DNA of 64,000 nucleotides from Escherichia coli. GTDB lineage: Bacteria; Pseudomonadota; Gammaproteobacteria; Enterobacterales; Enterobacteriaceae. The notes under the pieces were generated by a model that saw nothing but the letters and a program-made list of their open reading frames with translations, did no database searches and was not told the DNA's origin. The number at the start of each line of letters is the position of its first letter. The stretch's first letter is position 1. A program made the translations under genes and the position numbers. Positions 21,410 through 21,459 of this stretch are shown in pieces. Where the stretch lies: the NCBI RefSeq assembly GCF_003334305.1, contig NZ_QOWS01000004.1, one strand, 5' to 3'.

Positions 21410-21459
21410 ATGACAGATGCCCTCTTCCCGCAGGGAAGAGGGTTAAATAAGGAAAGAAG

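Follow-up and report, generated by a model that had tools for sequence, protein, structure and literature searches.

The locus lies in a stretch of 64,000 nucleotides of Escherichia coli DNA, referred to here as the window, which is an E. coli segment collinear with K-12 MG1655 and about 2.9% diverged from it over the 16 kb compared; window position x corresponds to MG1655 position x + 2,999,080. The genes ygfK, ssnA, ygfM and xdhD are treated in the literature as a single operon, and encode the first steps of reductive urate degradation in gut bacteria, a pathway described recently (PMC12507026). They are packed as two tight pairs, since ygfK and ssnA are separated by a 2-nt gap and ygfM and xdhD overlap by 4 nt, and the two pairs correspond to biochemical modules, YgfK with SsnA and the XdhD-YgfM complex (PMC12507026). 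Both pairs, ygfM-xdhD and ygfK-ssnA, are co-regulated as members of the same YgeV iModulon (PMC12133099). A hairpin divides them, located in the 50-nt spacer between ssnA and ygfM, which reads ATGACAGATG CCCTCTTCCC GCA GGGAAGAGGG TTAAATAAGGAAAGAAG. The features of the locus are the following:

16980-20078: ygfK (RefSeq annotation of the identical stretch)
20081-21409: ssnA (RefSeq annotation of the identical stretch)
21407-21409, + strand: TAA stop codon of ssnA, to whose interval (20081-21409) RefSeq ssnA maps
21410-21418, + strand: unpaired spacer ATGACAGAT from the stop codon to the hairpin, read from the sequence
21419-21443, + strand: full 11-bp RNA hairpin, including the closing wobble G21419.U21443 (RNAfold)
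21420-21429, + strand: 5' arm of the hairpin, CCCTCTTCCC, all pyrimidine
21421-21424, + strand: invariant basal core CCUC, whose partner is GAGG at 21438-21441
21430-21432, + strand: hairpin loop GCA (GCA, GTA, TCA or TCC, depending on the allele)
21433-21442, + strand: 3' arm of the hairpin, GGGAAGAGGG, all purine
21438-21441, + strand: invariant basal core GAGG, Shine-Dalgarno-like, 18 nt upstream of the ATG
21443-21450, + strand: tail TTAAATAA, A/U-rich and not a U tract
21449-21456, + strand: Shine-Dalgarno (SD) region of ygfM, AAGGAAAG, outside the stem, with AAGGA at 21449-21453
21460-21462, + strand: ATG start codon of ygfM
21460-22239: ygfM (RefSeq annotation of the identical stretch)
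22236-25106: xdhD (RefSeq annotation of the identical stretch)

The original prediction described a perfect inverted repeat of 10 bp around a 3-nt loop at 21420-21442, CCCTCTTCCC-gca-GGGAAGAGGG, between genes that it named ssnA and ygfM; the repeat is there as described and the names match the RefSeq annotation of the identical stretch. Its distances of 11 and 18 nt to the flanking genes are coordinate differences, and express the same geometry as the 10 unpaired bases from the ssnA stop to the perfect stem and the 17 from the stem to the ygfM ATG. Taken alone, the hairpin has 10 bp plus the G.U pair, seven of them G-C pairs, and a 3-nt loop, and folds with -19.7 kcal/mol. In its 81-nt context the energy is -24.2 kcal/mol (z = -3.25), a value equalled by one of 200 shuffles (RNAfold). 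The spacer at 21410-21418 has about the length of mRNA that a terminating ribosome is expected to cover. The basal GAGG, at 18 nt from the ATG, is too distant to act as the SD of ygfM; the SD region at 21449-21456 is invariant in the Escherichia alignment, and other genera have a GAGG-type SD at the equivalent position.

Perfect stems of 10 bp or longer that enclose 3-8 nt are about ten times commoner in the 64-kb window than in shuffled sequences, with six entries (four sites) against 0.45 per dinucleotide shuffle. The ssnA-ygfM hairpin is not a product of chance: it lies within a 50-nt spacer and is kept across genera. No sigma-70-like site that could serve as an internal promoter of ygfM is found on the + strand between 20100 and 21460, and the sole sigma-54-like match upstream of ygfM, at 21148, is without the -12 GC. 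Since no ygfM promoter is predicted and the two gene pairs share the YgeV iModulon, most transcription must pass through the hairpin.

The junction is found in 5178 of 5426 complete E. coli genomes, once in each (median of one place). In about 1200 of the E. coli genomes, which include CFT073, NC101 and ATCC 25922, the spacer is just 87.8% identical, and the hairpin of this divergent, B2-type allele is CCCCTCTTCTT-tca-GAGAAGAGGGG; compared with the K-12 stem, two pairs are altered on both sides and one becomes a wobble. O157:H7 strains carry a 1-nt deletion that results in 10 pairs (nine perfect ones and a G.U) and a 4-nt loop. Across nine Escherichia and Citrobacter alleles, 99% of the cells of the alignment at paired positions are pairing ones, while in controls with the partner slid by 1-3 columns this falls to just 52-74%. 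Three of the 11 pairs change on both sides among these nine alleles, taking the forms A-U/C-G/G.U, C-G/U-A and C-G/U.G/U-A, so that the last of them exhibits the complete path from C-G through U.G to U-A, and the closing pair 21419/21443 is G.U, A-U or C-G depending on the allele. The covariation score of the nine alleles is 0.247 against 0.135 in shuffles, and was reached by one of 500 shuffles. RNAalifold predicts the same 11 pairs de novo.

When all junction hairpins are taken together, ten cells are G.U or U.G and one is C.A. This excess of wobbles points to an RNA of the + strand, and not to a DNA cruciform or to a transcript of the - strand, in both of which the wobbles would be mismatches, and the hairpin is under selection as + strand RNA. 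The original prediction had offered an mRNA processing or stability element or a translational attenuator, which is reasonable. Covariation strongly supports a functional RNA element; attenuation by occlusion of the ygfM RBS is not supported, because the stem includes neither the SD nor the ATG. An operator for a DNA-binding protein is rejected, since above the base it is complementarity that is conserved, and not the sequence of half-sites, and the G.U wobbles favour RNA. An Rfam scan of 20500-22500 returned only a spurious mir-320 match, with 18.7 bits against a threshold of 55.5. The hairpin is a well-supported intercistronic mRNA hairpin of a conventional type, and is previously undescribed as far as its absence from Rfam and from the literature searched shows.

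Orthologous junctions were collected from one genome per species with YgfM and from the contexts of SsnA homologues, which gave 19 co-directional ssnA>ygfM junctions. They come from about nine genera overall: Escherichia (several species and alleles), four Citrobacter lineages, a contig labelled 'Klebsiella oxytoca', Klebsiella indica, Yokenella, Trabulsiella, Pluralibacter, Atlantibacter and Edwardsiella. A hairpin of 9-14 bp with -12 to -25 kcal/mol is present in 18 of the 19, and K. indica is the sole junction with a weak version. The spacers measure 45-56 nt, and the hairpin begins 2-9 nt past the stop and finishes 14-19 nt before the ATG. Upper stems and loops vary among genera, with arms such as CCCUCUCCU/AGGAGAGGG, CGCCUCCCG/CGGGAGGCG, CCUCCCCGC/GCGGGGAGG, UUUCUCCCCC/GGGGGAGAAA and GCGCCUCGACC/GGUCGAGGCGC. 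When the hairpins are anchored on CCUC, the basal four pairs are C-G, C-G, U-A and C-G in 18-19 of the 19 junctions, and the pairs below and above this CCUC:GAGG core covary, with C-G, U-A, G-C, A-U and U.G forms. In this cross-genus comparison the hairpins were folded singly and anchored on CCUC, which makes positional homology less certain, and MAFFT does not bring the distant hairpins into register. A covariance model built from the Escherichia alleles recovers the hairpin of Citrobacter R56 with 38.6 bits and that of K. indica weakly, and does not detect those of Atlantibacter, Trabulsiella and Pluralibacter. Scanning metagenomes with ATGGAYGCNCTGAAYTAA, which is an unspecific pattern, gave ssnA-ygfM in one of 120 loci, a duplicate of Pluralibacter.

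Two arrangements found in relatives separate the 3' end of ssnA from the start of ygfM and serve as natural controls. Six species have ssnA at the end of the operon, with the convergent ygfS-ygfT after it: Kluyvera intermedia, Klebsiella aerogenes, Citrobacter rodentium, Salmonella diarizonae, Cedecea and Intestinirhabdus. The CCUC...GAGG hairpin is absent after ssnA in all six of these species, which have instead an unrelated CCCGG-type, terminator-like hairpin 15-35 nt past the stop. In four of the six it is followed by 6-7 T in the next 8 nt (T counts by eye), and in the other two, Cedecea and Intestinirhabdus, by 3-4 T and a second hairpin. A stable hairpin is thus present at every ssnA 3' end, and a clear U tract is confined to those at which transcription should end.

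The second arrangement is that of three Kluyvera species, where ygfM-xdhD follow xdhABC after a 365-nt spacer with the sigma-54-like TGGTATGGACGTTGCT, and no ssnA lies upstream. At the homologous site, 17 nt before the ATG, Kluyvera keeps just a basal helix of 5-6 bp (CUCUC/GAGAG or CCCUCU/AGAGGG), which encloses a loop of 11-13 nt, shows no excess folding energy (z = 0.35 to 1.13) and has one pair that differs on both sides between species, as a compensatory change. The decay of the strong stem in Kluyvera, where ygfM has its own promoter, indicates that the strong stem is needed only in the polycistronic context. Together, the two controls indicate that it tracks the read-through junction, and not the ssnA end or the ygfM RBS as such.

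The hairpin has the G+C-rich stem-loop of an intrinsic terminator and not its U tract, which would be about five or more U in 8 nt. It shares with intrinsic terminators a 10-11 bp stem, a short loop and a location just past a stop codon, but it differs from them in its tail, TTAAATAA, and in the genes of the same operon, which resume 17 nt later. The number of T in 8 nt is three after the perfect stem and two after the G.U closing pair, so the absence of a T-run stated by the original prediction agrees with the tail, and a terminator scan that requires at least five T in 8 does not list the site. The view that an intrinsic terminator is unlikely is supported, for the U tract is absent here and in 18 of the 19 orthologous junctions. 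The missing U tract argues strongly against canonical termination, and so do the two natural controls: the operon-end relatives have another hairpin, which in four of the six is followed by a clear U tract.

A weaker form of termination deserves separate consideration. The hairpin could be a weak or conditional attenuator, at which partial termination or pausing without a U tract, possibly with help from NusA/NusG or backup by Rho, would let fewer polymerases reach ygfM-xdhD. The stem energy and the loop size fall within the terminator range, and, as Dar and Sorek noted, a stem-loop poorer in U may act as an intrinsic terminator of low efficiency (PMC6061677). The Edwardsiella tarda orthologue, which alone looks terminator-like, has AAA upstream of the stem and UUUUG after it. 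However, the tails of the 18 strong-hairpin junctions have 0-3 T in 8 nt and several are A- or G-rich, the site goes unlisted by the terminator scan, and most transcription must pass, given that no ygfM promoter is predicted and that the iModulon is shared. In addition, the lineages that do terminate after ssnA employ the different, CCCGG-type hairpin, with its clear U tract in four of six. We judge an attenuator unlikely.

The reading that we favour, tentatively and at somewhat less than even chances, is that the hairpin is a barrier to 3' exonucleases, which stabilises the ygfK-ssnA segment of the transcript. It would act in cis, within the + strand mRNA transcribed from ygfK-ssnA-ygfM-xdhD. 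RNA polymerase would pass it because no U tract comes after, and endonuclease cleavage or Rho would then create an end in the distal part of the transcript. From there PNPase and RNase II, which degrade RNA 3' to 5', would halt at the base of the stem, so the ygfK-ssnA segment with its protected 3' end would outlast the ygfM-xdhD segment, and the result would be unequal mRNA levels for the YgfK+SsnA and XdhD-YgfM modules. Stable stem-loops without U mark steady-state 3' ends in E. coli and shield them from PNPase and RNase II (PMC6061677), and conserved protective structures lead to differential decay within operons (PMC5927463). As in these cases, a stable and conserved structure is found at the 3' boundary of an operon segment. 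The barrier is suggested by the position of the hairpin right after the ssnA stop and by a strength that is needed only in the polycistronic context, as well as by the presence of a stable hairpin always after ssnA and the split of the operon into two packed pairs that are also modules. The hairpin structure, its selection as + strand RNA, its specificity for ssnA>ygfM junctions and the absence of terminator features are computed here; the exonuclease barrier and the difference in mRNA stability are the parts of the explanation that we infer. Neither ssnA nor ygfM nor coordinates 30205xx are listed in the supplementary data of two E. coli studies of 3' ends or decay, Adams 2021 and Dar and Sorek (PLoS Genet 2018). 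The urate operon is probably silent in standard media.

Against the barrier, there is no obvious need for YgfK and SsnA in excess over XdhD and YgfM. Moreover, a pure exonuclease barrier requires neither the invariance of CCUC:GAGG, nor the distance of 14-19 nt to the ATG, nor the basal helix of Kluyvera, and these features hint at a role in ygfM initiation or at a specific partner.

As to initiation, the stem could be a translational uncoupler or modulator, which we consider possible but rather unlikely. Placed at the leading edge of the ribosome that terminates on ssnA, with 5-8 nt between the stem and the ygfM SD, it would bar post-termination ribosomes from sliding to the ygfM start and limit the single-stranded standby surface, and translation of ygfM-xdhD would then be de novo initiation at a set, lower rate. 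The GAGG may be in this case a sequestered SD-like decoy and the CCUC its anti-SD-like partner. Such a role is consistent with the location of the hairpin between two translationally coupled gene pairs and with a geometry that is kept both towards the stop (2-9 nt) and towards the ATG (14-19 nt). It is also consistent with a CCUC:GAGG core that stays fixed though the adjacent pairs flip freely, transversions included, and with the Kluyvera basal helix, which persists 17 nt before the ATG with one compensatory change. In silico, opening the RBS becomes 1.8-2.9 kcal/mol more costly in Escherichia, Citrobacter and Trabulsiella once the pyrimidine arm is freed, but this effect is absent in Atlantibacter and Pluralibacter.

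Other observations stand against a role in translation. The SD and ATG of ygfM lie outside the stem and are unpaired in both MFE and centroid structures, and the GAGG is too far from the ATG, at 18 nt, to act as an SD. Opening the region from -16 to +6 in E. coli K-12 costs 3.30 kcal/mol with the hairpin versus 3.23 with both arms neutralised. Among the eight junctions compared, the difference ranges from 0.1 to 2.4 kcal/mol, in either direction; it is below 0.3 kcal/mol in E. coli K-12, Citrobacter R56 and Atlantibacter, and 0.65-2.4 kcal/mol, with inconsistent direction, in the other five. Finally, the strong stem is lost where ygfM stands alone, which argues that it is not needed for ygfM initiation as such. 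The barrier and the translational role are not mutually exclusive, and dual roles were suggested by Dar and Sorek themselves (PMC5927463).

Two simpler arrangements around the ygfM start were rejected. One is a hairpin that sequesters the RBS, because the SD and ATG are unpaired and the opening energy in E. coli K-12 is nearly unchanged. The other is a lower helix between the C-rich post-stop spacer and the SD, which is predicted in Atlantibacter and Trabulsiella and absent in E. coli. Folds also show long-range pairing between ssnA codons and the ygfM start, in which both partners are coding-constrained.

As to a specific partner, the hairpin would be the binding site of a protein or small RNA that recognises it through the CCUC:GAGG base. 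Sequence conservation is confined to the four basal pairs, with variation at every other pair, and the basal helix is kept in Kluyvera. However, there is no match to an Rfam family, and basal G-C pairs are also the most conserved ones in a simple stability element. CsrA sites typically present GGA in the loop, whereas the GGA motifs of this hairpin are in the stem. We know of no candidate binding partner for the CCUC:GAGG helix, and find this reading highly improbable.

Several other elements that are found after stop codons or between genes were rejected. A bacterial SECIS does not fit, since the E. coli stop is UAA and orthologues end in UAA, UAG or UGA; furthermore, SsnA ends at this stop by homology, and ygfM is in another frame, with in-frame stops between. 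A substrate of RNase III was rejected because the minimum length for this enzyme exceeds the 11 bp of the stem. No RNase E motif RN|WUU is conserved beside the hairpin in the 19 junctions, as judged by eye.

The hairpin resembles the BoxC/PIT/TMECO intrastrand-triplex repeats, whose TMECO consensus is CCCTCNCCC-N3-6-GGGNGAGGG-N3-GGGNGAGGG (PMC4666352). The region 46788-46886 of the window holds an inverted pair of these repeats between ygfF and gcvP, numbered 10 and 11 among the 23 MG1655 copies:

46788-46822, + strand: real TMECO copy, 40.7 bits
46851-46886, - strand: real TMECO copy, 49.0 bits

It is conceivable, although very unlikely, that the hairpin is a degenerate BoxC/PIT/TMECO relic, kept as DNA or neutral and without an mRNA function of its own. 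With at most three mismatches allowed (0.00 expected), the hairpin pattern matches one other place in the window, 46864-46886, which belongs to a genuine TMECO copy. In alignment, the hairpin covers TMECO positions 1-26, which comprise the Y block, the loop, the first R block and the type-A 'TTA' loop (PMC4666352); its stem is one base pair longer, and the SD region occupies the place of the second R block. On a profile of the 23 MG1655 TMECO copies, though, the hairpin scores just 6.7 bits (E = 0.65 in the window), the best Escherichia allele, E1V33, reaches 13.9 bits, and no score is obtained for those of Trabulsiella, Atlantibacter, Yokenella and Edwardsiella. The third block is unmatched, as AATAAGGAA agrees with it at 1-4 of 9 positions, and a match within two mismatches is not rare for a C-rich, all-pyrimidine arm (estimated at about 5%). 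TMECO copies are near-identical dispersed repeats, and the 121-nt stretch that contains the pair occurs at a median of 18 places in an E. coli genome, whereas the hairpin is single-copy and orthologous across genera and evolves by compensatory and G.U changes. Dispersal of the REP/BIME type is likewise not seen: the exact hairpin pattern occurs once in the window, and the covariance model finds no further copy in 174 kb.

In summary of this comparison, the hairpin shares with the BoxC/PIT/TMECO repeats of Holder et al. 2015 (PMC4666352) the pyrimidine CCCTC..CCC, the short loop, the purine GGG..GAGGG and the TTA, and differs from them in its lack of a second purine block, its extra base pair and its single location. 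It is not a BoxC member, and distant ancestry or the convergence of C-rich pyrimidine/purine palindromes may account for the likeness. PIT elements showed neither promoter nor terminator activity (PMC4666352). The 50-nt spacer could also be an exapted BoxC/TMECO-like module of one pyrimidine and two purine blocks, of which the pyrimidine and the first purine block became the hairpin and the second purine block the ygfM SD, with CCUC:GAGG as an anti-SD/SD-mimic that couples ygfM initiation to the ribosomes terminating on ssnA. We see only a slim chance of this, but if it were true, it would be the first physiological role for the BoxC-type architecture, which has lacked a known function since the 1990s. 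A purine-motif triplex with the SD region as third strand was rejected, since by eye the E. coli sequence permits it at just 5 of 10 positions.

The reductive urate-degradation pathway is being engineered for urate lowering, and a hairpin that splits its operon into two enzyme modules probably sets their relative expression, which is relevant to refactoring and over-expression. It also offers a small test case, supported by covariation, for U-less hairpins inside operons as barriers to decay. In other respects it is an ordinary type of element.

Among known systems, the 5' stabilising hairpin of papB-papA, which arises when RNase E cleaves immediately before a stem between the two cistrons (PMC5927463), shares with the ssnA-ygfM hairpin the intercistronic stem just upstream of the downstream RBS. 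It differs in its surroundings: at ssnA-ygfM the 10-nt upstream spacer has no RN|WUU-like RNase E motif (by eye), and is short, G/C-containing and covered by the terminating ribosome. The closest comparison is with the protective stem-loops of Dar and Sorek (PMC6061677, PMC5927463), for which the malE-malF REP is the paradigm of differential decay. The ssnA-ygfM hairpin is single-copy and not a REP, and its basal core is invariant in sequence. The protective structures of Dar and Sorek lie mostly inside the downstream coding region, whereas this hairpin lies in the spacer. Like the protective stem-loops, it is G+C-rich, has the energy and loop of a terminator without the U tract, follows the upstream cistron and is conserved in relatives.

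In E. coli O15:H18 ST69 (NZ_CP102488.1), homology to the window begins at 21361, 49 nt short of the ssnA end, and the genes on the 5' side of this breakpoint are of phage type, among them one for a Mor-family activator of the kind found in Mu-like phages. An insertion thus interrupts ssnA in this strain, while the hairpin in the ssnA-ygfM spacer and ygfM itself are intact. In Gim1-1, the one E. coli O157:H7 strain whose annotation was read, ssnA is given as a pseudogene with a frameshift, and the hairpin has lost 1 nt of its 3' arm, leaving nine perfect pairs plus a G.U pair and a 4-nt loop. 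Of the further E. coli O157:H7 matches H48-H50, H49 and H50 are likewise one base shorter. P0017, a predicted protein of 618 aa from a Logan assembly, combines the amidohydrolase domain of SsnA (PF01979) with the FAD-binding domain of YgfM (PF00941) in one chain and is 99% identical to SsnA; it may reflect fusion of ssnA and ygfM through loss of the spacer and its hairpin, or else an assembly error.

The locus of Citrobacter sp. MGH106 is only 87.5% identical to the window as a whole, yet its ssnA-ygfM spacer is almost the same allele as that of two E. coli phylogroup-B2-type strains (L002 and L003), a likeness that suggests either that the polymorphism is old and shared or that Citrobacter and Escherichia have recombined. 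In the Atlantibacter and Trabulsiella loci (L020-L023), a further helix is predicted beneath the main hairpin, in which the C-rich bases that directly follow the ssnA stop, ACCU or CCU, pair with the Shine-Dalgarno sequence of ygfM (GGGU or AGG); a terminating ribosome would open this helix, which has no counterpart in E. coli. A 7.7-kb contig labelled Flavobacterium paronense CECT 8460 (NZ_JAUFQN010000014.1) carries ssnA-ygfM-xdhD with 97.8% identity to the window across 5.8 kb and, judged by this identity, is almost certainly E. coli contamination of that assembly.

Sigma-54-like sites precede ygfK and, in Kluyvera (locus L015), a stand-alone ygfM:

Window 16892-16907: sigma-54-like site TGGTGCGATTGTTGCT, about 70 nt 5' of ygfK
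L015 2381-2396: sigma-54-like site TGGTATGGACGTTGCT, similar to TGGTGCGATTGTTGCT, 5' of the Kluyvera ygfM

Both sigma-54-like sites fit control by YgeV, an enhancer-binding protein; across the whole window, the count of sigma-54-like matches is not above chance.

Other hairpins in the window comprise one directly 3' of the xdhD stop and three perfect ones with stems of 10-12 bp:

25116-25131: GGCCGC-ttcg-GCGGCC hairpin, directly 3' of the xdhD stop
5075-5098: ATCCGGCCTG/CAGGCCGGAT, REP-type resemblance
45913-45940: ACCGGATGCAA/TTGCATCCGGT, REP-type resemblance
57976-58004: TCAGGGCGATGC/GCATCGCCCTGA

The first has moderately T-rich tails on both strands and likely marks the 3' end of the ygfK-xdhD operon.

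The window also holds repeats of the BoxC/PIT/TMECO type and a degenerate look-alike:

46788-46822 (+) and 46851-46886 (-): BoxC/PIT/TMECO intrastrand-triplex repeat, inverted pair between ygfF and gcvP
49876-49947: degenerate BoxC-like stretch (..GAGAGTGAGGGTGAGG.. / ..CCTCACCCTGATCCTCTCCCGCAGAAGAGGA..), 16.5 bits with the TMECO profile

The inverted pair corresponds to copies 10 and 11 in Holder et al. 2015 (PMC4666352), and the 121-nt stretch that contains it recurs as a dispersed sequence, at a median of 18 places in each E. coli genome. The degenerate stretch lies slightly past the point where a long ORF on the minus strand, 46967-49840 (gcvP), starts. CCCGCAG and AAGAGG are common to this stretch and the ssnA-ygfM hairpin. 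The 8-mer GAGGGTTA occurs in the ygfK ribosome-binding site GGAGAGGGTTATG (window 16968-16982) and again both where the 3' arm of the ssnA-ygfM hairpin runs into its tail and in the R-block of BoxC with the TTA that follows.
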